Shown: positions 3,187 through 36,900 of the stretch, in pieces
Layout: each line of letters begins with the position of its first letter
Position numbering within the stretch: position 1 is the first letter of the stretch
From: Escherichia coli
GTDB taxonomy: Bacteria > Pseudomonadota > Gammaproteobacteria > Enterobacterales > Enterobacteriaceae
Assembly (NCBI RefSeq): GCF_013122565.1
Contig: NZ_CP053258.1
Length of the DNA: 64,000 nt
Direction: 5' to 3' (one strand)
The notes under the pieces: generated by a model
The model's input: the letters and a program-made list of their open reading frames with translations, nothing else
Told to the model about the DNA's origin: nothing
The model's database searches: none
Made by a program: the position numbers and the translations under genes

Positions 3187-3220
3187 GTGCCGGATTTCAT
3201 ATCCGGCACTTACTTTCCTT
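3187..3220 (+). terminator. intrinsic terminator after tpiA
   Basis: 9-bp stem gtgccggat/atccggcac with loop ttcat, followed by T-rich tract. Confidence 0.6.
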
Positions 3221-5401: not shown

Positions 5402-6364
5402 TTAATACAGTTTTTTCGCGCAGTCCAGCCAGTCGCCTTTGAACGGACGCTTCATGTTTTCGATAGCGTCGATGATGTCGTGGTGAACCAGCTGTTCGTT
5501 CTGGATACCTACGCAACGACCGCCGTAACCTGCCAGCAGCAGATCGATAGCGTAAGCGCCCATACGGGAAGCCAGAATACGGTCGTAAGGCACCGGAGAA
5601 CCACCGCGCTGGATGTGGCCCAGCACAGTTGCGCGGGTTTCACGACCGGTTTCTTTCTCGATGAAATGCGCCAGTTCGTCAACATCACACATATGTTCGG
5701 TAATCGCCACGATCGCGTGTTTTTTACCTTTCGCGATACCCGCTTTGATTTCGTTTACCAGGTCTTCACGGCTGAATTCAACTTCCGGAACCACAACGAA
5801 TTCACAGCCACCGGCAATGGCCGCAGCCAACGTCAGATCGCCACAATAACGGCCCATCACTTCCACCACGGAAATACGCTGGTGAGAAGAAGAGGTGTCA
5901 CGCAGACGGTCGATCGCTTCTACAACGGTGCTCAGCGCAGTGAAGAAACCGATAGTGTAGTCAGTGCCTTTGATGTCGTTGTCGATAGTGCCCGGCAGAC
6001 CGATGCACGGGAAGCCCATTTCGGTCAGACGCATTGCACCCATGTAGGAACCGTCACCGCCGATAACCACCAGCGCGTCGATACCACGTTTTTTCAGGTT
6101 TTCGATAGCCACGGCGCGGATGTTCTCGTCGCGGAATTCCGGGAAACGCGCAGAACCGAGGAACGTACCGCCACGGTTGATCATGTCAGAAACGCTGTAA
6201 CGGTCTAGCTGTACCATACGGTCTTCATACAGACCCAGATAGCCGTCATAAATACCCATTACTTCCAGACCTTCTGTCAGCGCAGAACGAACAACCCCGC
6301 GAATTGCGGCGTTCATGCCTGGCGCATCACCGCCGCTTGTCAACACACCGATTTTCTTAATCAT
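5402..6364 (-). CDS. pfkA: 6-phosphofructokinase I
   Basis: ORF trimmed to ATG at 6362-6364 giving [23 protein letters not shown]..., 320 aa. Confidence 0.97.
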
Positions 6365-6544
6365 GACTACCTCTGAACTTTGGAATGCAAAATGAAATCT
6401 GTTGCCGGAAGTCTTCTTACACATCGAAGTGATCCAACGAATGTGCAAATAGTATAACAATCACTTCCTGCTGAATTGATTCAGGTCAGGCCAAATGGCG
6501 GTATTTTATACACAAAATGCGGGTCTGGCTCTCTTTTATACTGA

Positions 6545-7447
6545 TTATGAAAGCATAGACCGTTTACCCTCCCTGGGTACGACGGAACAGGGGTCCTGAT
6601 GGATAATCACATCCGATCCCGGAAAACGCCGTAAAATAGCCTGCTCTACCTGATCCGCCACCATATGTGCCTGAACCAAAGGCAGAGAGTCTTCCATTTC
6701 CAAATGAATCTGAATAAAGCGGGTCGGCCCTGACTGCCGCGTGCGAAGATCGTGAGCGCCGCTAACACCCGGCCAGGAAGTCACGATATCAATAATTTCT
6801 TGCCGTTCCTCATCAGGTAATGCGCGATCCAGTAATGACTGTACCGCCTCATATCCCATGCGTAACGCGCTATATAAAATATAGATGCCGATTCCCAATG
6901 CAAACAGAGCATCGGCGCGATGCCAGCCGTACCAGGACAACCCCAGCGCCAGCAGAATTGCGCCGTTCATCATAACATCAGACTGGTAATGTAGCATATC
7001 AGCCCGCACCGCCTGGCTTTGCGTCCGGCGCACCACCCAACGCTGAAACGAGACAAGGATAATCGTACAAATTAGCGCCACAATTGTCACGATAACCCCG
7101 ACGCCTGGATCTGTCATCGGTGTTGGAGATATCAGATGTTGAATACCCGTCAAAAACAGGAATAGTGCCGAACCGGAGATAAACATACTTTGCGCCAGCG
7201 CCGCGAGGGACTCAGCTTTACCGTGACCAAACGAGTGATTATCGTCGGCAGGTTGCAGGGAATATCGCACCACCAGTAAATTCGTCAACGACGCGCCGAT
7301 ATCCACCAGCGAATCCACCAGCGCGGCGAGAATACTCACCGACCCGGTATACCACCATGCAAAAATTTTAATCAGCAATAGCAGCGAAGCCATCGCCGTC
7401 GCAGCAATCGCCGCCCGACTGACCAGCCGTCCATAAGATTGATTCAT
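6545..7447 (-). CDS. fieF: cation diffusion facilitator (Fe/Zn efflux) FieF
   Basis: ORF trimmed to ATG at 7445-7447 ([18 protein letters not shown]...), 300 aa; the ORF-track start is a TTG upstream. Confidence 0.93.
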
Positions 7448-7528
7448 AAATACTCCCGCTATCAACTGACGCTAGTATAACGGAAGCAAATCATCTGCAA
7501 TGCATTAAGCAGCAGGCAAATTGAGGAT

Positions 7529-7555
7529 AAAAAAAACCCCCACATCATGTGGGGG
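7529..7555 (-). terminator. cpxP intrinsic terminator
   Basis: minus-strand hairpin cccccacatgatgtggggg followed by a U-run (A-run 7529-7536 on + strand). Confidence 0.75.
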
Positions 7556-7592
7556 AAGACAGGGATGGTGTCTATGGCAAGGAAAACAGGGT
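7530..7592 (-). ncRNA. cpxQ: CpxQ sRNA (cpxP 3'UTR-derived), probable
   Basis: about 60 nt between the cpxP stop and its terminator; CpxQ is known to be processed from the cpxP 3'UTR; exact 5' end not determinable from sequence. Confidence 0.5.
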
Positions 7593-7595
7593 TTA

Positions 7596-8096
7596 CTACT
7601 GGGAACGTGAGTTGCTACTACTCAATAGCTTCAACGATGAACTTTTTTGCCATTGCGTCACGTCACGCAACTGCTCCATTCGTTGTTGATGTTTCTCGTT
7701 TAAAACCGCTTGCTGCTCCGGCGTTAACAGGCGATACATTTGGTTGCGGACTTTTGCCATCTCAACCTGACGAGCAATTTGCTCATTCGCCATTTTTTCT
7801 GCCTGTGCGCGCACAGCGTTTTCATCAAAATTTTCTGCGGTGACAAGGCGATGCATTGTCTCCAGTTCGCTAACATTAACAGGAGGCTGTTCGTGCCGGG
7901 CCTGTTGCATAAGATCTCGCATCTGCTGACGCTGATGTTCGGTTAAACTTATGCCGTCGAACATATGGCTCTGCGTACTGCGCTGCGTAAGTTCTTCACC
8001 CGGATGCCAGTTATCGCCTGAACCGACTTCAGCAGCGTGGCTTAATGAACTGACTGCCAGCGTTGAGGCCATGACGGCAGCGGTAACTATGCGCAT
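7596..8096 (-). CDS. cpxP: periplasmic Cpx pathway inhibitor/adaptor CpxP
   Basis: 166 aa from the second Met ([21 protein letters not shown] signal peptide); divergent from cpxRA. Confidence 0.93.
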
Positions 8097-8175
8097 CATT
8101 TGCTCCCAAAATCTTTCTGTCGCGATTCAACGATAGAGAGTTTACGATTCAGGCTGCAAACATGCGTCAGGGGGT

Positions 8176-8190
8176 GTAAAACAACGTAAA
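8176..8190. promoter_or_regulatory. CpxR-P binding box in cpxP-cpxR divergent promoter
   Basis: GTAAAacaacGTAAA, a perfect match to the tandem GTAAA-N5-GTAAA CpxR consensus; a further GTAAA half-site on the opposite strand near 8141-8150. Confidence 0.7.
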
Positions 8191-8245
8191 GTCATGGATT
8201 AGCGACGTCTGATGACGTAATTTCTGCCTCGGAGGTATTTAAACA

Positions 8246-8944
8246 ATGAATAAAATCCTGTTAGTTGATGATGACCGAGAGCTGACTTCCCTATTAAAGG
8301 AGCTGCTCGAGATGGAAGGCTTCAACGTGATTGTTGCCCACGATGGGGAACAGGCGCTTGATCTTCTGGACGACAGCATTGATTTACTTTTGCTTGATGT
8401 AATGATGCCGAAGAAAAATGGTATCGACACATTAAAAGCACTTCGCCAGACACACCAGACGCCTGTCATTATGTTGACGGCGCGCGGCAGTGAACTTGAT
8501 CGCGTTCTCGGCCTTGAGCTGGGCGCAGATGACTATCTCCCGAAACCGTTTAATGATCGTGAGCTGGTGGCACGTATTCGCGCGATCCTGCGCCGTTCGC
8601 ACTGGAGCGAGCAACAGCAAAACAACGACAACGGTTCACCGACACTGGAAGTTGATGCCTTAGTGCTGAATCCAGGCCGTCAGGAAGCCAGCTTCGACGG
8701 GCAAACGCTGGAGTTAACCGGCACTGAGTTTACCCTGCTCTATTTGCTGGCACAGCATCTGGGTCAGGTGGTTTCCCGTGAGCATTTAAGCCAGGAAGTG
8801 CTGGGCAAACGCCTGACGCCTTTCGACCGCGCTATCGATATGCACATTTCCAACCTGCGTCGTAAACTGCCGGATCGTAAAGATGGTCACCCGTGGTTTA
8901 AAACCTTGCGTGGTCGCGGCTATCTGATGGTTTCTGCTTCATGA
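8246..8944 (+). CDS. cpxR: response regulator CpxR
   Basis: 232-aa OmpR-family ORF MNKILLVDDDRELTSLLKELL...; 4-nt overlap with cpxA. Confidence 0.97.
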   Translation: MNKILLVDDDRELTSLLKELLEMEGFNVIVAHDGEQALDLLDDSIDLLLLDVMMPKKNGIDTLKALRQTHQTPVIMLTARGSELDRVLGLELGADDYLPKPFNDRELVARIRAILRRSHWSEQQQNNDNGSPTLEVDALVLNPGRQEASFDGQTLELTGTEFTLLYLLAQHLGQVVSREHLSQEVLGKRLTPFDRAIDMHISNLRRKLPDRKDGHPWFKTLRGRGYLMVSAS

Positions 8945-27194: not shown

Positions 27195-28250
27195 TTAACG
27201 CAGGCTATTATAGTCATCAACCATTTCGTTGTACTCGCGTAACGCGCGTGGAAATGAGTCTTCGACCATCCAGCTTGTGTTTGCATCCTGAAGATGCTCT
27301 TTATCCCAGTCAGAGTACGGGACTTTATCTCTGACGCGGCGAACATATTTTTTAGTCTCGAGTTGATACTGGTCTGCCGAATTAATGAACGAGAAATTCA
27401 TACCGCCTTTATCCGCTTCTTTGGCCTGCGCTACCAGCGTTTCCAGTTCAGAGACTTTCTTCATTGCCGCATCAACATCAAACTTCTCTTGCGATATCAG
27501 GTTATTAATTTGTTTCGCTGAAATCATGACTGCCAGAGAGTAGTAGTGGAATGTTTTCCCTTCTCTTTCTTCAATATTTTTCAGTTCCGCAAGCTGACGC
27601 TTATCGTTAATTTCCTGAATCGCCGCATGATAAGATTCTGCTACAGGTTCAAAGGCTTCCAGATTTTTTAAGAATGTCTGGTGCAGCGTTTTCCCTTTCG
27701 CAAACGCATCGTCTTTATAATTTTCCTGGGTGTAATATTTATCCATTTCGTTAATGGTATTACCCAACGCCACGGCAGCATCGATATAACTCACCGCCAC
27801 GCCATCAATTGGTTGCAGCGCAGGCGTTAACGCCACGACTCTTTTTATTCCTTTTTGACACTCAGAGAGATTGGATTCACTAATGCCGTAAATGCCATAA
27901 ACAAGGCTCTCTCTACCCGTTGGCCCCTGTTTAAAATCTTTCAGCCAGTCAGCGTAACGCGCCAGACTGTTCTGTACAGGAATCTGTAACTTGTTGTAGC
28001 ACTTGATATAGACATCCATTTTTTCGTCGAAAACCGCTTGTTCATCGACCACCGGTTGCGCAGGCGTTTCAGGTTTAACTTCTGCTTTTGCAACGGGAGC
28101 TTCAGTAGGTTTCGCTTCAGGAGCTGGTGCGGCAGGTTGACTATTGGCAGGCGGGGGCGTTTCTGTTTCGGCTTTTTTATCATCACAACCCGTGAGACCG
28201 AGGGACATGATGGCGACTATAATAGCGGAAGATAATAAATTCCTTTTCAT
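27195..28250 (-). CDS. yiiG: DUF3829 lipoprotein YiiG
   Basis: 351-aa ORF with lipobox (…SLGLTGC) and a low-complexity PAxP-rich linker. Confidence 0.85.
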   Translation of the reverse strand: MKRNLLSSAIIVAIMSLGLTGCDDKKAETETPPPANSQPAAPAPEAKPTEAPVAKAEVKPETPAQPVVDEQAVFDEKMDVYIKCYNKLQIPVQNSLARYADWLKDFKQGPTGRESLVYGIYGISESNLSECQKGIKRVVALTPALQPIDGVAVSYIDAAVALGNTINEMDKYYTQENYKDDAFAKGKTLHQTFLKNLEAFEPVAESYHAAIQEINDKRQLAELKNIEEREGKTFHYYSLAVMISAKQINNLISQEKFDVDAAMKKVSELETLVAQAKEADKGGMNFSFINSADQYQLETKKYVRRVRDKVPYSDWDKEHLQDANTSWMVEDSFPRALREYNEMVDDYNSLR

Positions 28251-28444
28251 TTAATTGCCTTATAAATATATAGATAAGAGAGATAATATTTTAAATGAAA
28301 AAATGATCCGTCACTATACACATCTTGCTTATAAACAAACCGAAATTATTCATACCCCAAATAATTCCTGCGACTTAAAATATAAATCGCAGGAAGCTAT
28401 TTTAATTACCCGCTCTACCAGTGGCGCAGGATATAAACTCTCAC

Positions 28445-30751
28445 CTACATTCCATAACGTTCAGAAATAGCAGCATGTTTCTCTTCATTCGCCCCGGCTT
28501 CTTTGGCAAGACGCCACCAGCACAACGGATGTTCCCAGTCAGCGGTCAATTCGTGCAAGGTCTTATCGATATCACCTTTAGAAACTGAACGCGGCGCACT
28601 GATAACAAAGTAGAATGCGGGAAGTGGCTGCGCATCTTCACCCTGATGACTGTCCGTTAACGTATAGTCGTCATTACTGTTGCTCCAGTAGTACCAGTTT
28701 CGTTCGCGGAGCGCCTCACGGAAGGCATTAAACTGTTCTTCACCAGGCATGACACCTTCGCAGAACCAGGACTCGCCGTATTCGGTCGGAATAATGGTTT
28801 GCAGGCAGGCATAAAGTGGCGTGAAATTCTTCTGCTCTTCCTCATCCTCTGGTCGGGAGTTCAACATTTCTGCATCGAATACCACAACTTCATCAACATG
28901 TTGCGGATAATCGGTCCGGTAAGTTGGCTCAATGATCCTTGCTGTTACCGGCCCAATACGTTGAGCATAGTAATAGCGGTATTCATAATTTTCCCGGAAG
29001 CGGATGTTTAACAACCCCCATTTTTCGTCAATAAAACCTTCGCCTTCCGTGAGTTCGATTTCCAGTTCAGCAGCAATAGCACGAACCAAATCCCATTGTT
29101 GCAGGATGCTGGCGGTCGCCATGATATCCCACTGGAGATTTCGAATATCTTCTTCACGGCTAATCATCAGTTGCTGCAATTGCTGTAAATAATCCAGTTG
29201 TCGATCCCAGGCTTCCTGTTTTTGTGCTGCCCAGGAGCACATGCGATAAACGCCAACCCACTCACGCCCTTTTTCGTGTTGCAGCAACTGTTGCCCAATC
29301 GACTCCAGTTCACTCCAGTCTTCCTGTTGGTTGATCACTCGCGCGCGGAACCACAAGGCCATATGTAGCAGCCCCGCCTGTTCATACTGCTTCGCCAGAT
29401 GCTCGATAGTTTGCAAATCGTCACGGTGGAGCAAGAGATCCAACAGATCGAAGCAAAGTCCATTATCTTCCTGAAGATGGCTTTCAACGTAGCGTTGCAG
29501 GAGTTCAATCGATTCATCAATCGCATTGCAGGCGTTTAACGCATTGACCAGCTTGCCCAGCAATTCCGCATCATCAGGCGTGTTCAGATAAGCGCGGCGG
29601 AATGTTTCTACGTCTTTTTCTGGATCTGGCTGCGTTTCTTCATCGCTATTTTCAGGTACTTCTACAACCGGACGAGCCAGCAACTCTGCTTCTTTGGCGG
29701 CTATTTTTTCACTCAGTTCGAGAAATTCGCGATCGACGCCCAGTAACGCGCGTAATTTTGGCATGTGTCGCTGGGCCAGTTTCATCGCTATTTTGGCAAC
29801 CCAGACGGATTCACGCTCCAGCGCCAGGGTAATTTGCAGTTTCGCCAGATCAACCACTTTGCGGTGCGCCCCGGCCTGTGAACGTTGCTCCAGCATTTTC
29901 TGGATGATGCGCGCCAGTTGCCAGTTGTTTCTTTGTGGATGACGGGGAAGTAACACAGTAATGATTTTCAGCCATGACCCCCATGAATGCGGAGTCAGAT
30001 CGGACCAACGCGGTAATTCCTCCCAGACTTCTTCGTCCTGCCCGCATAACGCCATGATGTACAGTTTTTTTAGGTGATTACTAATGCGGTCGCGGCCCCA
30101 GTAATCATTGCTTTCTGTCAGCTCATCAATCAGTTTGCGTGCTTCATCATAACGCTGAAGTTCAATCAGAATATCGGCGCGAGTATAAAGTAATGGATCA
30201 AAATCATCTTCCCCGGCGGCTTTAACCGCGTCGATTTGCCGATCCAGATAAGCCAGTGCCTCCTCTGTTCTTTTGGAATCTATCAGTGCACTGGCATATT
30301 CAGTGGACAAACACTGAAAACAGCTCCAGGTTGCATCAATGCGCGCGATGGTTTCTTCACACACCGCCATGCGTTCATTCGCCCAGCCAGGTGCATCAAT
30401 ATTTTCGTAGCAGGCGGATAAATCCTGGGTAACGCAGATAGATTGCGGGCAATCTTTCGCCTCTTCCCGGTGCGCTTTTTCAAACAGCGCCACCACGTCT
30501 GGCAGTACTTTTTCGCCTTCTTCGCGGTTAGTGAGACGATGGCGCATTTCCCAGTGACCAATAAAAATCTCCAGCCACGGATTTTTTGCCACCTGGGTAA
30601 GCGCTTTTACTTCAGGTAATAGCGAATCGCACTTTTCCATTTGCAGGTGCATAACGCCTTCCGAATAATCATCGATAAGTTGCGGAATATACTCCTGCCC
30701 GGCATCGCGCAACTCCTTAGTATATTTATGGTACCAATCCCATATATCCAT
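28445..30751 (-). CDS. hypothetical 768-aa helical/acidic protein, translationally coupled to upstream Hsp90-like gene
   Basis: ORF MDIWDWYHKYTKELRDAGQEY...; RBS AAGGAAA 6 nt upstream of the ATG, embedded in the end of the upstream gene; 1-nt gap from its stop; no catalytic motif recognised. Confidence 0.8.
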   Translation of the reverse strand: MDIWDWYHKYTKELRDAGQEYIPQLIDDYSEGVMHLQMEKCDSLLPEVKALTQVAKNPWLEIFIGHWEMRHRLTNREEGEKVLPDVVALFEKAHREEAKDCPQSICVTQDLSACYENIDAPGWANERMAVCEETIARIDATWSCFQCLSTEYASALIDSKRTEEALAYLDRQIDAVKAAGEDDFDPLLYTRADILIELQRYDEARKLIDELTESNDYWGRDRISNHLKKLYIMALCGQDEEVWEELPRWSDLTPHSWGSWLKIITVLLPRHPQRNNWQLARIIQKMLEQRSQAGAHRKVVDLAKLQITLALERESVWVAKIAMKLAQRHMPKLRALLGVDREFLELSEKIAAKEAELLARPVVEVPENSDEETQPDPEKDVETFRRAYLNTPDDAELLGKLVNALNACNAIDESIELLQRYVESHLQEDNGLCFDLLDLLLHRDDLQTIEHLAKQYEQAGLLHMALWFRARVINQQEDWSELESIGQQLLQHEKGREWVGVYRMCSWAAQKQEAWDRQLDYLQQLQQLMISREEDIRNLQWDIMATASILQQWDLVRAIAAELEIELTEGEGFIDEKWGLLNIRFRENYEYRYYYAQRIGPVTARIIEPTYRTDYPQHVDEVVVFDAEMLNSRPEDEEEQKNFTPLYACLQTIIPTEYGESWFCEGVMPGEEQFNAFREALRERNWYYWSNSNDDYTLTDSHQGEDAQPLPAFYFVISAPRSVSKGDIDKTLHELTADWEHPLCWWRLAKEAGANEEKHAAISERYGM

Positions 30752-30752
30752 T

Positions 30753-32588
30753 TTATTTTCCTTGATTAATTAAAACGGGAATAACCTGAGTAAAATCTTC
30801 CAGTGCCTGGTGTAAATCCCACTGCTGTTCTTTATTGCCGCTGGAGCACAAAATCACTTTCAGCGATTTTAATAACCGTAATGCTGCCGCTGGCTGTTGA
30901 TGGTGTTGTAAGGCAGTCACCAGTTGCATGACACAGGGGTTATTAAGATTGATATACAGACTTGAGGTTTTCGTTTTTTGGATTTGCGAGGTAAATTGCC
31001 GCGCCAGCATTAACGCTGCGGTACTGATGCGTTTATCTGCGTCATCCTGTTCGAGAATTTGTTTTAATTCTGCTTCCCGGTCTGGCGTGACCACTAACGG
31101 CAAAACGGCGGGTTCGAAGCGGGAGATAATTAATTGCTCGCCATCGCAAAGATGCTCTTCCAGATAAGCCACTTGCTCTTCGGGTAATTCCGCCAGGCTG
31201 AACAATTGCTCATTGCCCGTTTGCGTACCGACTTCGATAATCCGGCAATGATATAACAGCGCCCAACGGCGTAAAAATGGCACCACCGCATAGCGATCGC
31301 CACGGGCTACAGGCCGTTGCAGAATATGGAACAACATCTCTTCAAAACCGCCGTCGCGGCTTAACAGAATATGAATGCTGTTATTAACGCGTAAATCCTT
31401 CGCCAACAGTGCGCCTTTTGACGTTGGCACCTGTAAGCGATCTTTGAGCAAATCAAACAGACGGTCATCACACAATGCCGCGCCCAGCAACGCTTCGTTG
31501 TGGCGCATTAATACACGCCGCCAGATTTCTGGCTGATTTTGTGCGAGATCGGACAAACCAGAAATCAGCGCCTCTTTTAACGCCTCCTGCACCGCAACCC
31601 AGGTTTCATCCCGCTGGAGATCTTCCCTGCTCGCCGTCGGCGTCAGTTTCGATGACTCAATCACGCCACCAATAAATCCGGCCCAGGGCGGTAACAACTC
31701 ACGCGCTTCGTCATCCAGTAACATACCGCGCAAAAACAACGACAGGTTGCGGTTATCGCTGGTGCCGTAGGTTGCGCCATCCTGAATCCATAAAATCCCG
31801 ACCGCGTCGCTCATCCCCGCTGGCACCACCGGAATGGTGCAAATCGGTTCGAAGGAGGATTCAAACTGTGCGGCAAAGGCGAGATTTTTACGCTGCACCA
31901 GCGCGCGGTGCATGGTCACGCCTTCGGGGGCAACTTCACGCCACGGTGGTTGAAGTTTATTTACCGGCTCGCTGGCATCGCCGACATAAACCGGTTCGTG
32001 CAGCAATATGCAGTAGCGGGAAAGAACGCGGTTCAGCAAATTATTACTTGCCAGATGGCTGTACTCTTCTTTGAGCGTCAGAATCACCTGCGTACCCGTT
32101 TCCGAGGACTGATGCGGCGTAACGGTATATTTTTGCCCGTCAGTAGAGTGGTATTTCCAGCTCTGATCCGGCGTTTGCCAGGATGTGGTCAACACCGTGA
32201 CCTCTTTTGCAAGTACAAATGCTGACAAGAAACCAAGGCCGAACATACCAATTAAACCGGTGTTGTCATCCTGCTGGCGCAACATTCGGGTATAACCCAC
32301 GCCCACTGTTGCCAGGAAGCCGTGAATTTCGCTTTCTGTCAAACCCGCACCGGTATCGGTAATGGTGATGGTGGACTTCGCCACGTCTGCCACTACACGA
32401 ATTTGGTTATCCTTTGGCGCATCGGGCTGCTCAATCCTGCGGCGCACGATCGCATCGTGTCCGTTCTGCACCAGCTCGCGCACGGCGACCACGGGCGTAG
32501 AGTAAAGGTGCTTACTGAGCACCTCAATTAAGCCGTTTAAATTAACTTCAGTAGAATATGAACTGCCAGGTAACTGTAATGTACTCAT
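30753..32588 (-). CDS. Hsp90-family (HtpG-like) GHKL ATPase paralog
   Basis: 611-aa ORF with Bergerat-fold motifs (…VRELVQNGHDA… ; …ITDTGAGLT… ; …GMFGLGFLSAF…) mirroring the HtpG N-domain ELISNASDA / DNGIGM / GQFGVGFYSAF; too divergent to be htpG itself. Confidence 0.75.
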   Translation of the reverse strand: MSTLQLPGSSYSTEVNLNGLIEVLSKHLYSTPVVAVRELVQNGHDAIVRRRIEQPDAPKDNQIRVVADVAKSTITITDTGAGLTESEIHGFLATVGVGYTRMLRQQDDNTGLIGMFGLGFLSAFVLAKEVTVLTTSWQTPDQSWKYHSTDGQKYTVTPHQSSETGTQVILTLKEEYSHLASNNLLNRVLSRYCILLHEPVYVGDASEPVNKLQPPWREVAPEGVTMHRALVQRKNLAFAAQFESSFEPICTIPVVPAGMSDAVGILWIQDGATYGTSDNRNLSLFLRGMLLDDEARELLPPWAGFIGGVIESSKLTPTASREDLQRDETWVAVQEALKEALISGLSDLAQNQPEIWRRVLMRHNEALLGAALCDDRLFDLLKDRLQVPTSKGALLAKDLRVNNSIHILLSRDGGFEEMLFHILQRPVARGDRYAVVPFLRRWALLYHCRIIEVGTQTGNEQLFSLAELPEEQVAYLEEHLCDGEQLIISRFEPAVLPLVVTPDREAELKQILEQDDADKRISTAALMLARQFTSQIQKTKTSSLYINLNNPCVMQLVTALQHHQQPAAALRLLKSLKVILCSSGNKEQQWDLHQALEDFTQVIPVLINQGK

Positions 32589-32866
32589 TTTTCAATACTC
32601 ATAATCCATCACCCACTATTGAAAATACATTGCTGTTTTTACAACCGGTGCAAGGTTTGTTATTTGCATTCACTCATCAGAAACATTTATTTATTGATGC
32701 GATGATTAAAACAAAATGTCTTATATAAATAATGATTAATTCTTAAAGGATTAATGCGACCGGAGTATATCGATATAAACCGGAATTAACGAGATAATTT
32801 ATTGTGGTGAAAATATTATTTAAATGCTGAATAATATATTGAGGATTATTTAATAGAAAAATAAAA

Positions 32867-32891
32867 CCGCAATCCAGAATCAGAATTGCGG
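32867..32891 (-). terminator. hairpin downstream of fdhD
   Basis: stem ccgcaat/attgcgg with an 11-nt loop, flanked by T-rich sequence on both strands. Confidence 0.5.
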
Positions 32892-32898
32892 TATTTAT

Positions 32899-33735
32899 TT
32901 AATTATGAATCAAACGCTGCGGATGCGTATAAACCGTCGCCCGACCCGGTTTACAAAAGCCCACCAGCGTCAGATTACAGCGCTCGGCCACTTCCACGGC
33001 AAGTGTGGTCGCGGCAGACACCGCAAACAAAATCTCTACGCCACACATCGCCGACTTTTGCACCATTTCATAACTGGCACGGCTGGAAACCAGTACCGCA
33101 CCTTGCTGCCAGCTTTCCCCTTCTTGTGACCGGCGGCCTAACAGTTTGTCCAGCGCCACATGACGCCCCACGTCTTCATGCCCGCCGACCAGTTCGCCAG
33201 ATGGCAACATCCATGCAGCGGCGTGAGTACAACCAGTCAGTTGCCCCACTGGCTGGAAATCGTTGAGATGACGTAATGCATCATCCAGTTTGTTGAGATC
33301 AAACGTCTGGGTGAACGGTAGCGGCTGCACCGGTTTTCCGATGTCATTAAGTTGCTCCACGCCGCATACACCACAGCCCGTACGTCCCGCCAGCGCCCGG
33401 CGGCGCTCCTTCAACCCCATAAAGCGGCGGCTGGAAAGCTCAATTTGTACTTCAAGACCATTACAGGAAGGAACGACATCCATGCCGAAGATATCGCGCG
33501 GGCTTTCTATAATCCCCTCGGAAAGCGAAAAACCGAGCGCAAAGTACTCAAGGTCTTTGGGCGACGCCATCATCACCACATGCGAAATGCCGTTGTAGAC
33601 CAGCGCAACGGGAACTTCTTCCGCCACCTCATCTAACCGTGGGTGTTGTAAATCATCACGTCGCCATAACACAATTTGACGAACACCTGTGACATTTGTC
33701 ACATTTTCGATTTCTTTTTGCTGTGTTTTTTTCAC
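32899..33735 (-). CDS. fdhD: formate dehydrogenase sulfurtransferase/accessory protein FdhD
   Basis: 278-aa [23 protein letters not shown]... Confidence 0.95.
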
Positions 33736-33928: not shown

Positions 33929-36900
33929 ATGCAGGTCAGCAGAAGGCAGTTCTTTAAGATCTGCGCTGGCGGTATGGCAGGCACCACGGCAGCGGCACTG
34001 GGTTTTGCACCCAGCGTAGCACTCGCGGAAACCCGGCAGTATAAACTGCTGCGCACCCGCGAAACCCGTAATACCTGCACCTATTGTTCCGTAGGCTGTG
34101 GGCTGTTGATGTACAGCCTCGGTGACGGAGCAAAAAACGCCAAAGCATCTATCTTCCATATCGAAGGCGATCCGGATCACCCGGTCAACCGCGGTGCACT
34201 TTGTCCGAAAGGCGCTGGCCTGGTGGATTTCATCCACTCCGAAAGCCGTCTGAAGTTTCCGGAATACCGTGCGCCAGGTTCTGATAAATGGCAGCAAATC
34301 AGTTGGGAAGAGGCGTTTGATCGCATCGCCAAACTGATGAAAGAAGACCGCGATGCTAACTACATTGCGCAAAACGCCGAAGGCGTGACTGTTAACCGCT
34401 GGCTCTCTACCGGGATGCTGTGTGCTTCCGCATCGAGTAACGAAACCGGCTATTTAACGCAAAAATTCTCCCGCGCGCTGGGTATGCTCGCGGTCGACAA
34501 CCAGGCGCGTGTCTGACACGGACCAACGGTAGCAAGTCTTGCTCCAACATTTGGTCGCGGTGCGATGACCAACCACTGGGTCGACATCAAGAACGCCAAC
34601 CTCGTCGTGGTGATGGGCGGTAATGCCGCTGAAGCTCACCCGGTCGGGTTCCGCTGGGCGATGGAAGCCAAAATTCACAACGGCGCGAAGCTGATTGTGA
34701 TCGATCCTCGCTTTACGCGTACGGCGGCGGTAGCTGACTACTATGCCCCTATTCGTTCCGGTACTGACATTGCTTTCCTGTCAGGCGTATTGCTGTACCT
34801 GCTGAACAATGAAAAATTCAACCGCGAATACACCGAAGCCTATACCAACGCCAGCCTGATCGTGCGTGAGGATTACGGCTTTGAAGATGGCCTGTTCACC
34901 GGCTATGACGCGGAAAAACGCAAGTACGATAAATCCTCCTGGACTTACGAACTGGACGAAAACGGCTTCGCCAAACGCGATACCACGCTGCAACATCCGC
35001 GCTGCGTGTGGAACTTGCTGAAACAGCACGTTTCCCGCTACACGCCAGATGTGGTTGAAAACATCTGTGGTACGCCAAAAGACGCGTTCCTGAAAGTCTG
35101 CGAATACATCGCAGAAACCAGTGCTCACGATAAAACTGCCTCGTTCCTGTATGCCCTCGGCTGGACGCAACACTCCGTTGGTGCGCAAAACATTCGTACG
35201 ATGGCGATGATCCAGCTGCTGCTCGGCAATATGGGGATGGCAGGCGGCGGCGTTAACGCCCTGCGCGGTCACTCCAATATTCAGGGGCTGACGGACCTGG
35301 GGCTGCTGTCGCAGAGCCTGCCAGGTTACATGACGCTGCCAAGCGAGAAGCAGACCGATCTGCAAACCTACCTTACCGCCAACACGCCAAAACCGCTGCT
35401 GGAAGGCCAGGTAAACTACTGGGGCAACTACCCGAAATTCTTCGTCTCTATGATGAAGGCCTTCTTTGGTGATAAAGCGACGGCGGAAAATAGCTGGGGC
35501 TTTGACTGGTTGCCGAAGTGGGATAAAGGCTACGACGTCCTGCAATACTTCGAGATGATGAAAGAAGGCAAGGTCAATGGCTATATCTGCCAGGGCTTTA
35601 ACCCTGTTGCCTCATTCCCGAACAAAAACAAAGTGATCGGTTGTCTGTCGAAACTGAAGTTCCTCGTCACTATCGACCCGCTGAACACTGAAACCTCTAA
35701 CTTCTGGCAGAACCACGGTGAGCTGAACGAAGTTGACTCGTCGAAGATCCAGACCGAAGTGTTCCGTCTGCCATCGACCTGCTTCGCGGAAGAGAACGGT
35801 TCAATCGTTAACTCAGGTCGCTGGTTGCAGTGGCACTGGAAAGGTGCGGACGCCCCGGGGATTGCGCTGACTGACGGCGAGATCCTCTCCGGTATCTTCC
35901 TGCGCTTGCGCAAGATGTATGCCGAACAGGGTGGCGCAAACCCGGATCAGGTGCTGAACATGACCTGGAACTACGCCATTCCGCATGAGCCGAAGTCGGA
36001 AGAAGTGGCGATGGAGAGCAACGGTAAGGCGCTGGCCGATATTACCGATCCGGCAACCGGTGCGGTTATCGTCAAGAAAGGTCAACAACTTAGCTCGTTC
36101 GCCCAACTGCGCGATGACGGTACAACTTCCTGTGGTTGCTGGATTTTCGCCGGTAGCTGGACGCCGGAAGGCAACCAGATGGCACGCCGTGATAACGCCG
36201 ATCCGTCTGGCCTCGGTAACACGCTGGGCTGGGCATGGGCATGGCCGCTTAACCGCCGCATTCTGTATAACCGCGCCTCCGCAGATCCGCAGGGTAACCC
36301 GTGGGATCCGAAGCGTCAGTTGCTGAAATGGGACGGCACTAAGTGGACCGGCTGGGATATTCCGGACTACAGCGCAGCGCCTCCGGGTAGCGGCGTCGGG
36401 CCGTTTATCATGCAGCAGGAAGGCATGGGGCGTCTGTTTGCCCTCGATAAGATGGCGGAAGGTCCGTTCCCGGAACACTACGAGCCGTTTGAAACGCCGC
36501 TGGGAACTAACCCGCTGCATCCAAACGTTATCTCGAACCCGGCTGCACGTATCTTTAAAGACGACGCCGAAGCATTGGGTAAAGCCGATAAGTTCCCGTA
36601 TGTCGGAACCACCTATCGTCTGACCGAGCACTTCCACTACTGGACCAAACACGCGCTGTTGAACGCGATTTTGCAGCCAGAGCAGTTTGTGGAAATCGGT
36701 GAGTCGCTGGCGAATAAACTTGGCATTGCCCAGGGCGATACCGTGAAAGTCTCCTCCAACCGTGGCTATATCAAAGCCAAAGCGGTGGTGACCAAACGTA
36801 TTCGCACGCTGAAAGCGAACGGCAAAGATATCGATACCATCGGTATTCCGATTCACTGGGGCTATGAAGGCGTTGCGAAAAAAGGCTTTATTGCCAATAC

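Follow-up and report, generated by a model that had tools for sequence, protein, structure and literature searches.

In a stretch of 64,000 nucleotides (nt) of Escherichia coli DNA (GCF_013122565.1, contig NZ_CP053258.1; hereafter the window), a two-gene operon lies between fdhD and yiiG. It encodes a paralog of the Hsp90 chaperone family of 611 amino acids (aa) and, downstream of it, a 768-aa protein which we call the partner. A single nucleotide separates the stop codon of the first gene from the start codon of the second (...CAAGGAAAATAA-A-ATG, i.e. TAA-A-ATG), and a Shine-Dalgarno-like run, AAGGAAAA, is found within the end of the 611-aa gene, ahead of the partner start. Both sides of the operon carry terminator-like hairpins, and since these follow fdhD and the 768-aa gene, the pair appears to form a separate transcription unit. 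The sequence facts given in an initial annotation of the window were correct throughout: both open reading frames (ORFs) with their lengths, positions and strand, the 1-nt gap, the ribosome-binding run inside the upstream gene, and the AT-rich region of 310 base pairs (bp) ahead of the operon, part of which proved to be the fdhD terminator hairpin. Positions of all features are given in Table 1.

Table 1. Features of the Hsp90 paralog/partner operon and its surroundings in the window. TPR, tetratricopeptide repeat.
Feature	Position	Strand	Remarks
Hsp90-family paralog, 611 aa	30753..32588	-	ORF; NCBIfam and Pfam matches; TRAP1/HtpG alignment
Partner protein, 768 aa	28445..30751	-	acidic; TPR-type superhelix, then alpha/beta C-terminal domain
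Partner N-domain, aa 1-352	29696..30751	-	counterpart of stand-alone short forms of ~350 aa
Cysteine cluster, aa 101-147	30311..30451	-	C101-P-Q-S-x-C106...C114...C131...C144-x-x-C147
Second TPR array, aa 377-562	29066..29623	-	long forms only; profile search and helix pattern
C-terminal alpha/beta domain, aa 579-768	28448..29017	-	long forms only; no known family matched
AT-rich spacer upstream of operon, 310 bp	32589..32898	-	includes fdhD terminator hairpin
Five-codon leader ORF	32585..32602	-	MSIEK-stop (ATG AGT ATT GAA AAA TGA); read from sequence
Terminator-like hairpin after fdhD	32866-32892		inside spacer
Terminator-like hairpin ending operon	28365..28395	-	13-pair stem, 50 nt past partner stop
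Left direct-repeat copy	32895..32905	-	TAATTAAATAA; overlaps fdhD stop codon
Right direct-repeat copy	28398..28408	-	TAATTAAAATA
fdhD	32899..33735		flanking gene
yiiG	27195..28250		flanking gene

Judged from its sequence, the 611-aa protein is a divergent ATPase paralog of the Hsp90 family and appears to be Hsp90 over most of its length. Pfam searches returned HATPase_c_3 (E 2.9e-9) as well as HSP90 (PF00183, E 1.1e-7), the latter in the middle region (aa 274-353). The best relatives of solved structure were TRAP1 and HtpG, which phmmer aligned over aa 10-359 with E values of ~1e-28 to 1e-30. The three N-domain motifs of the Bergerat fold, which the initial annotation had recognised, are all present, including the catalytic Glu/Asn/Asp residues: motif I with E38 (the catalytic Glu), N42 (the Mg-binding Asn) and D45 in RELVQNGHD, motif II with the adenine-binding Asp in D78-T-G-A-G, and motif III, the Gly-rich lid, as G114-M-F-G-L-G. 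The catalytic Arg of the middle domain is R321 in A319-S-R321-E-D, which aligns with the LSRE motif of TRAP1. When the 17 residues common to all HSP90 subfamilies (Chen et al. 2006), namely Y, REL, N, D, G, G, GQFG, G, P and SRE, were mapped by eye from the TRAP1 alignment, without a curated alignment, 16 of them were found in the paralog, the exception being GQFG changed into GMFG. With all residues for ATP binding and hydrolysis present, the paralog looks active.

The Bergerat ATP site, the Arg of the middle-domain SRE motif and a length of ~610-630 aa are thus features shared with HtpG and TRAP1. However, the score of the paralog for the HtpG equivalog model of NCBIfam (NF003555) was 198.7 bits over aa 14-385 (cut-off 371), and for the nearest NCBIfam model, NF010683 ('HSP90 family protein', PRK14083), it was 288.9 bits over aa 13-571 (cut-off 455). 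Because neither score reaches its curated cut-off, the protein is neither the housekeeping HtpG (in agreement with the initial annotation) nor a member of the modelled paralog family, and its clade lies outside NF010683. The C-terminal ~250 aa are especially divergent: the NF010683 alignment extends to aa 571, but no solved Hsp90 could be aligned past aa 359 by phmmer. The C-terminus reads ...IPVLINQGK, and EEVD ended none of ~85 distinct paralog tails from related loci. As the paralog has no EEVD tail, any docking of the partner on it could not be of the eukaryotic EEVD-clamp type. A conserved C-terminal amphipathic helix following a variable linker was considered as a clade-specific docking tail; since similar helices occur in Hsp90 relatives outside the clade, it was dropped as specific evidence.

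In a search of 1.84 billion cluster representatives, the paralog fell among ~50 full-length 50%-identity clusters at 37-52% identity, while the next Hsp90 relatives showed 28-34% identity. The scores leave a gap between the two sets (at least 333 bits for full-length members, at most 263 bits for the next relatives). The ATPase would accordingly represent a new clade of a known family, and some database records give it the name 'Hsp90xo'. Very likely it belongs to the assemblage of HtpG Groups B and C, ancient divergent lineages defined by phylogenies (Chen et al. 2006, PMC1525184; hsp90B and hsp90C in Press et al. 2013, PMC3708813), whose members are likewise divergent second-copy Hsp90s without an assigned function. 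Second copies of gamma-proteobacteria and actinobacteria fall into Groups A and C (Chen et al. 2006, PMC1525184), and the hsp90B/hsp90C paralogs were explicitly ignored by Press et al. (2013, PMC3708813). Both studies dealt with phylogeny only and reported no conserved operon partner (PMC1525184, PMC3708813).

The partner contains 142 Asp and Glu versus 83 Lys and Arg residues. A weak match to TPR_19 was its only Pfam hit, NCBIfam returned nothing, and no enzyme domain could be detected in it. In a confident AlphaFold2 model built from 57 homologs (pLDDT 91.8), helical repeats form an uninterrupted superhelix over aa 1-562, within which aa 360-376 are a flexible linker of low confidence, and an alpha/beta domain follows (aa 579-768). 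Tandem 34-residue TPR repeats were recognised by both profile and structure, and the second array matched consensus-TPR structures with an E value of 1e-37 over aa 383-535 in a profile search; beyond the generic TPR, no specific similarity to the TPR domains of Hop, Sti1 or CHIP was found. The partner therefore looks like a TPR superhelix resembling a scaffold, and two of its domains, an N-terminal 'CPQ-Cys' domain and the C-terminal alpha/beta domain, are without family annotation. The initial annotation had called the protein acidic and helical, which holds for its charge and for aa 1-562, not for the alpha/beta domain. It had also found no recognisable catalytic motif, and missed the TPR identity, the separate C-terminal domain and an invariant cysteine cluster.

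This cluster resides in the most conserved stretch of the partner (aa 61-150). C101, C106, C144 and C147 are invariant in all 57 long forms, and C114 is kept in 54 of them; when short forms (see below) are added, P102, Q103, C106, C144 and C147 are still invariant. Neither a Pfam family nor a PDB sequence matched aa 1-150. Most simply, the cluster may be regarded as a putative metal (Zn or Fe-S) or redox site.

The structural neighbours of the partner are ligand-sensing TPR domains, namely the sensor domain of MalT and the peptide receptors AimR, Rap, NprR and PlcR. Such neighbours, as well as the invariance of the cysteines, would suit an ATP-driven molecular switch, in which the TPR grooves and the Cys site of the partner respond to a ligand, a peptide, a metal or the redox state (in one version as a redox-gated stress response in the manner of Hsp33), and the GHKL dimer clamps like MutL or MORC, signalling to or remodelling a target. 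The paralog is also weakly similar in its N-terminal part to the non-chaperone GHKL proteins sacsin, BbrUII-type restriction enzymes and TmtA of PADLOC. Its Hsp90 character nevertheless extends beyond the GHKL domain, as seen from the reach of NF010683 (aa 13-571) and the SRE motif of the middle domain, and no DNA-binding, kinase or nuclease output domain is present in either protein or in conserved neighbours. We consider a switch of this kind rather improbable.

As for conservation of the pairing, a pattern scan of one genome per species detected relatives in 124 of 100,044 species, a minimum figure, given that the scan relied on no more than two peptide patterns. The analysis retained 80 loci, among them 28 Xanthomonas and 17 Stenotrophomonas species representatives. 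The others include Lysobacter, Pseudoxanthomonas, Escherichia, Superficieibacter, Phytobacter, Kosakonia, Budvicia, P. aeruginosa PA7, several Rhodocyclales, Variovorax, Holophaga (Acidobacteria) and a metagenome-assembled genome (MAG) of Chloroflexi. Homologs of the partner are full length (757-828 aa, mostly 760-775 aa, with 28-41% identity), and occur in Cronobacter, Klebsiella aerogenes, P. aeruginosa, Xanthomonas, Acinetobacter, Rhodocyclaceae and Parabeggiatoa. In 75 of the 80 species loci, representing ~30 genera, tblastn found the Hsp90 paralog immediately upstream on the same strand. Three of the remaining five loci lack upstream DNA, which leaves 75 of 77 informative loci with the pair. 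The distance from the Hsp90 stop to the partner start is between -32 and +129 nt in 89 of 90 loci, and this constancy of order and spacing agrees with the initial proposal of one co-expressed unit. Flanking genes vary between genera, and when flanking ORFs of ~85 loci were clustered, no third conserved gene family emerged, only the two genes recurring across genera. The next cluster of flanking ORFs, a candidate for a third component, proved to consist of spurious Arg-rich shadow ORFs in high-GC DNA.

Two loci deserve separate mention. In a Candidatus Parabeggiatoa MAG (L089, 4593-8014), the match to the long-form partner spans 3.4 kb, and the start-codon finder placed the partner start 1129 nt past the Hsp90 stop; the wide spacing is possibly due to an insertion or an assembly problem. 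A Parabeggiatoa record also contains a separate short-form protein of 352 aa. In Xanthomonas axonopodis DSM 3585 (L090, 4122-5966), the paralog match is fragmented (best piece 264 bits, 49% identity) and the longest paralog ORF recovered has 325 aa, next to an intact partner. Probably, this paralog is a frameshifted or pseudogenised copy.

The ratio of nonsynonymous to synonymous substitution rates (dN/dS) was obtained by comparing the window with another E. coli allele, E. whittamii and Salmonella Infantis, and amounted to 0.018-0.035 for the paralog and 0.055-0.099 for the partner. As these values are far below 1, both genes appear to be functional and under strong purifying selection, the ATPase being constrained like a core gene. 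Across the same genomes and genera, identity is 55-63% for the paralog versus 36-41% for the partner, and faster evolution of the partner is as expected of a specificity subunit. From the recurrence of the same order in ~30 genera and the dN/dS far below 1 for both genes, it can be inferred that the pairing is old and that the co-inheritance goes beyond chance. That two functionally unrelated genes simply share a transcript is hardly credible: nothing specific favours it, gene order and close spacing are maintained, with all other neighbours changing, in Gamma- and Betaproteobacteria, an Acidobacterium and a Chloroflexi MAG, and a truncated form of the partner is coupled in the same way.

Such truncated, or short, forms are numerous and measure 345-365 aa. 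Two distant paralogs within the clade (37-38% identity) are followed by a protein of 352 or 358 aa, at +5 and -8 nt. Both of these short forms (L093, L095) are homologous to aa 1-352 of the long partner, with hhalign probabilities of 99.8-99.9% and E values of 1e-29 to 6e-31; the full CPQSxC...CxxC motif is kept by one of them, and C101 and C114 are missing from the other. In Pseudomonas sp. KNUC1026 and Tahibacter amnicola, a short form is also located directly downstream of the Hsp90 paralog, so that the paralog was directly upstream in all four short-form loci examined. At the one locus inspected of an Hsp90 from outside the clade (33% identity), there was no short-form neighbour. Since the short forms, too, are coupled to the paralog and are homologous to aa 1-352, the constant unit would be the Hsp90 paralog together with the Cys-bearing N-domain of ~350 aa, to which the second TPR array and the C-terminal domain appear as an add-on. 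The short-form pair of Pseudomonas sp. KNUC1026 (L096, 1-4815) adjoins genes with VasX_N and Tla3_N domains, which are type VI secretion effector and immunity families; this neighbourhood was seen in no other genus.

The modular partner bears on another possible relation between the two proteins, that of chaperone and client. Here, the partner would be the end product, a metal- or peptide-binding scaffold or sensor, and the paralog its private foldase or maturase, required for folding the long solenoid or for loading a Cys-bound cofactor. The full architecture of the partner is kept where no Hsp90 gene is adjacent (Thorsellia, Nonomuraea and the metagenomic contig L010), which suggests that it has its own function; chaperone-dependent insertion of a cofactor would suit the invariant Cys cluster of the N-domain common to both forms, and the tight 1:1 coupling fits equally well. 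On the other hand, the model predicts a regular helical repeat with high confidence (pLDDT 91.8) for most of the partner, and Hsp90 clients are not typically of this kind. One would expect a private foldase to be lost as easily as it is kept, yet the paralog is the more constrained of the two genes (dN/dS 0.02-0.035), and the coexistence of short and long forms resembles an adaptor family more. We therefore regard a chaperone-client module as unlikely, though deserving serious attention.

In E. coli, the pair was detected in 254 of 5426 complete genomes (4.7%), in each of them as a single chromosomal locus, which agrees with its initial description as accessory. In a strain without the pair (L002), yiiG and fdhD are adjacent and 152 bp apart, as the initial annotation had stated for K-12, and further pair-less strains gave just a short match spanning yiiG and fdhD. 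The site itself is shared more widely. E. whittamii, two further Escherichia species and the genus Superficieibacter likewise have the pair between fdhD and yiiG, and in Salmonella Infantis SARB27 it is located just downstream of fdhD.

Carriers differ from pair-less E. coli by a segment of 4.5 kb, at either end of which there is a copy of an imperfect direct repeat of 11 bp, TAATTAAA(A)TA. The pair-less strain L002 has a single repeat copy at the joint (3190-3204), and its last fdhD codons differ from those of the window. This pattern is consistent with precise deletion between short repeats, although a repeat this short and AT-rich could arise by chance. A homolog of the operon-ending hairpin directly follows fdhD in pair-less E. 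coli, where it serves as the fdhD terminator. Because the site is common to Escherichia species and Superficieibacter, the GC content is ordinary and a single repeat copy remains in pair-less E. coli, the pair was probably ancestral at the fdhD-yiiG site and subsequently lost from ~95% of E. coli. The same site in related species, the position downstream of fdhD in Salmonella Infantis and the ordinary GC content indicate that the initial wording, according to which the pair had been inserted here, is probably wrong. Two E. coli alleles of the operon are unusually divergent for a single species: between the window and strain S1-KEN-05-A (L100), dS amounts to 0.20 in the paralog gene and 0.46 in the partner gene. 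The partner begins with MDTWEWYN in S1-KEN-05-A, as it does in the E. whittamii and Salmonella alleles, and with MDIWDWYH in the window. This could reflect an old polymorphism or recombination between species.

A compact two-gene cassette that is accessory in E. coli (4.7%), with neighbours differing by genus, might also be an anti-phage or conflict system, with the TPR protein as the sensor of a phage component and with abortive infection executed by the GHKL ATPase together with the C-terminal domain. Both TPR sensors and GHKL ATPases are known from defence systems, weak PADLOC matches to TmtA and REase_II exist in the N-terminal part of the ATPase, the C-terminal domain of the partner matches no family, and one Pseudomonas genome has the pair beside effector and immunity genes of a type VI secretion system. 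In PADLOC-DB 2.0, however, the partner had no matches at all, and the ATPase only these weak GHKL matches (best E 5e-6, aa 13-137). Moreover, the pair is common in species of Xanthomonas and Stenotrophomonas and keeps its synteny between enterobacterial genera, it is under strong purifying selection with a slowly evolving ATPase, and no defence genes were present among the called neighbours of inspected loci, nor a conserved third gene or recognisable effector. When plasmids and phages were searched with the partner by tblastn, three plasmid records and one phage record were returned. The 'phage' record is a Salmonella whole-genome shotgun contig, and the 'plasmid' records include replicons of 11.85 Mb (Nonomuraea) and 847 kb (P. 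aeruginosa). At least three of the four records are not real mobile elements but mislabelled chromosomal or shotgun sequence or a megaplasmid, and the pair appears to be essentially absent from plasmids and phages. Distribution and genomic context thus disfavour a defence system, to which we assign very little probability.

The explanation that we tentatively prefer is a specialised two-subunit Hsp90 machine, in which the partner serves as a dedicated co-chaperone or adaptor. We count for it the conserved pairing, the intact ATPase residues, the scaffold-like partner and the chromosomal distribution. According to this model, the 611-aa protein would act as an ATP-driven clamp of the Hsp90 type, and the partner would be made in a roughly equal amount through translational coupling, as the 1-nt gap suggests. 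The N-domain of ~350 aa, with its Cys-ligated metal or redox centre, would dock on the Hsp90 paralog. The long forms could possess a specificity module, made up of the additional TPR array and the family-specific C-terminal domain; this module would capture a given protein or peptide and hand it to the ATPase as a substrate, or would gate the ATPase. The task would be one of chromosomal, housekeeping-like proteostasis or assembly rather than mobile defence.

Several observations weigh against such a machine. The C-terminal amphipathic helix of the paralog recurs in Hsp90 relatives of which it was not examined whether they have a partner, and is no clade-specific evidence. Some 95% of E. coli thrive without the pair. 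In PT62, the strain closest to the window (L001, 99.8% identity), the partner gene (6246-8552) carries a single nonsense mutation, E416*, and is annotated as a pseudogene by RefSeq, with the Hsp90 paralog intact. Thorsellia, the only real exception among the 80 loci, has a partner without an adjacent Hsp90 gene, and neither Nonomuraea nor L010, which encodes a distant partner homolog, has an adjacent paralog. From these three cases, it seems that the partner can act alone or with an Hsp90 encoded elsewhere. A 608-aa neighbour of the distant homolog in L010 was considered as a hidden Hsp90, but BLASTP showed that it is none.

How does the proposed machine compare with known systems? No named one fits: PADLOC and NCBIfam are empty for the partner, and our literature search brought up no study of the pair, of 'Hsp90xo' or of any co-chaperone of a bacterial Hsp90, in line with the initial annotation, which could not assign the genes to any system. 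Reviews state that there is no Hop-like protein in bacteria. Two articles describe HtpG as working without co-chaperones (PMC8629791, PMC9312948), and one of them describes TRAP1, the closest relative of HtpG, as lacking them as well (PMC9312948); the window paralog, in contrast, is almost always encoded with a partner. The eukaryotic TPR co-chaperones (Hop/Sti1, CHIP, PP5, Sgt1, Tah1) likewise combine an Hsp90 ATPase with a TPR-repeat protein and an Hsp90-linked module with a variable client or effector module, comparable to the short and long forms of the partner. Unlike the Hop/CHIP type, the paralog has no EEVD tail and the partner no specific Hop/Sti1/CHIP similarity.

The nearest precedent for the proposed logic is found in hscB-hscA and hscC-djlB/djlC, where an Hsp70 paralog is encoded beside a dedicated co-chaperone and performs a narrow task. 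These systems differ in belonging to the Hsp70 family and in having J-domain partners, and we know of no Hsp90 equivalent of such operons. In plants and animals, the Hsp90-SGT1-RAR1/CHORD module joins Hsp90 to a TPR-containing partner and to a partner domain with zinc-binding Cys/His residues. The partner described here shows no similarity in sequence or fold to CHORD or CS domains, so this is an analogy only.

Some details of the surroundings remain to be described. The promoter of the operon is presumably located in the 310-bp spacer, which has a GC content of ~0.35-0.39 (overlapping 400-bp frames) and is kept among Escherichia species; the two genes, unlike the spacer, are near their neighbouring genes in GC content (~0.42-0.57). 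No convincing sigma-70 match was found on the minus strand of the spacer (9 sites in the scanned region versus 8.0 expected by chance), nor a convincing sigma-32 site, which was checked by eye only. No obvious Shine-Dalgarno sequence precedes the annotated ATG of the Hsp90 paralog. This ATG is overlapped by the TGA of the five-codon leader ORF (ATGA), which is itself preceded by a purine-rich run, GGTGATGG. The leader ORF is conserved in Escherichia and, as MSVEK, in Salmonella, and in Superficieibacter electus the leader ATG appears in frame with the Hsp90 gene. It could represent a coupling leader or a mis-set start codon.

Beyond fdhD, an in-frame TGA at 34514-34516 on the plus strand separates the ORFs 33929..34516 and 34565..36979 (...ARV-TGA-HGPTV...). 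As a selenocysteine codon is expected here in the gene for the alpha subunit of formate dehydrogenase, the two ORFs belong to one gene. RefSeq labels it fdnG in strain PT62; since fdoH and fdoI adjoin, it should be fdoG.

HtpG is non-essential, few of its clients are known, and bacterial Hsp90 is poorly understood in general; its divergent paralogs, known since 2004-2006, have so far been no more than branches of trees. A conserved, translationally coupled partner offers a concrete entry to the role of one such lineage. The two proteins make up a defined system which is naturally absent from E. coli K-12, and thus has a clean heterologous host, and which is present in tractable pathogens (Xanthomonas, Stenotrophomonas maltophilia, Cronobacter and PA7-like strains of P. 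aeruginosa), with E38, R321 and the four invariant cysteines as targets for mutation. In its strongest form, which we hold to be somewhat doubtful, our proposal would make the partner the first dedicated bacterial Hsp90 co-chaperone, a TPR superhelix with a Cys-metal centre, independent of Hop/Sti1, which would dock on an ancient paralog in a non-EEVD manner and deliver substrates to it. If the partner is a co-chaperone, the arrangement of Hsp90 with a TPR protein would have arisen twice in evolution. Should this be true, the textbook notion of bacterial Hsp90s operating without co-chaperones would be overturned, and the uncharacterised 'group B/C' Hsp90 lineage would gain a function.

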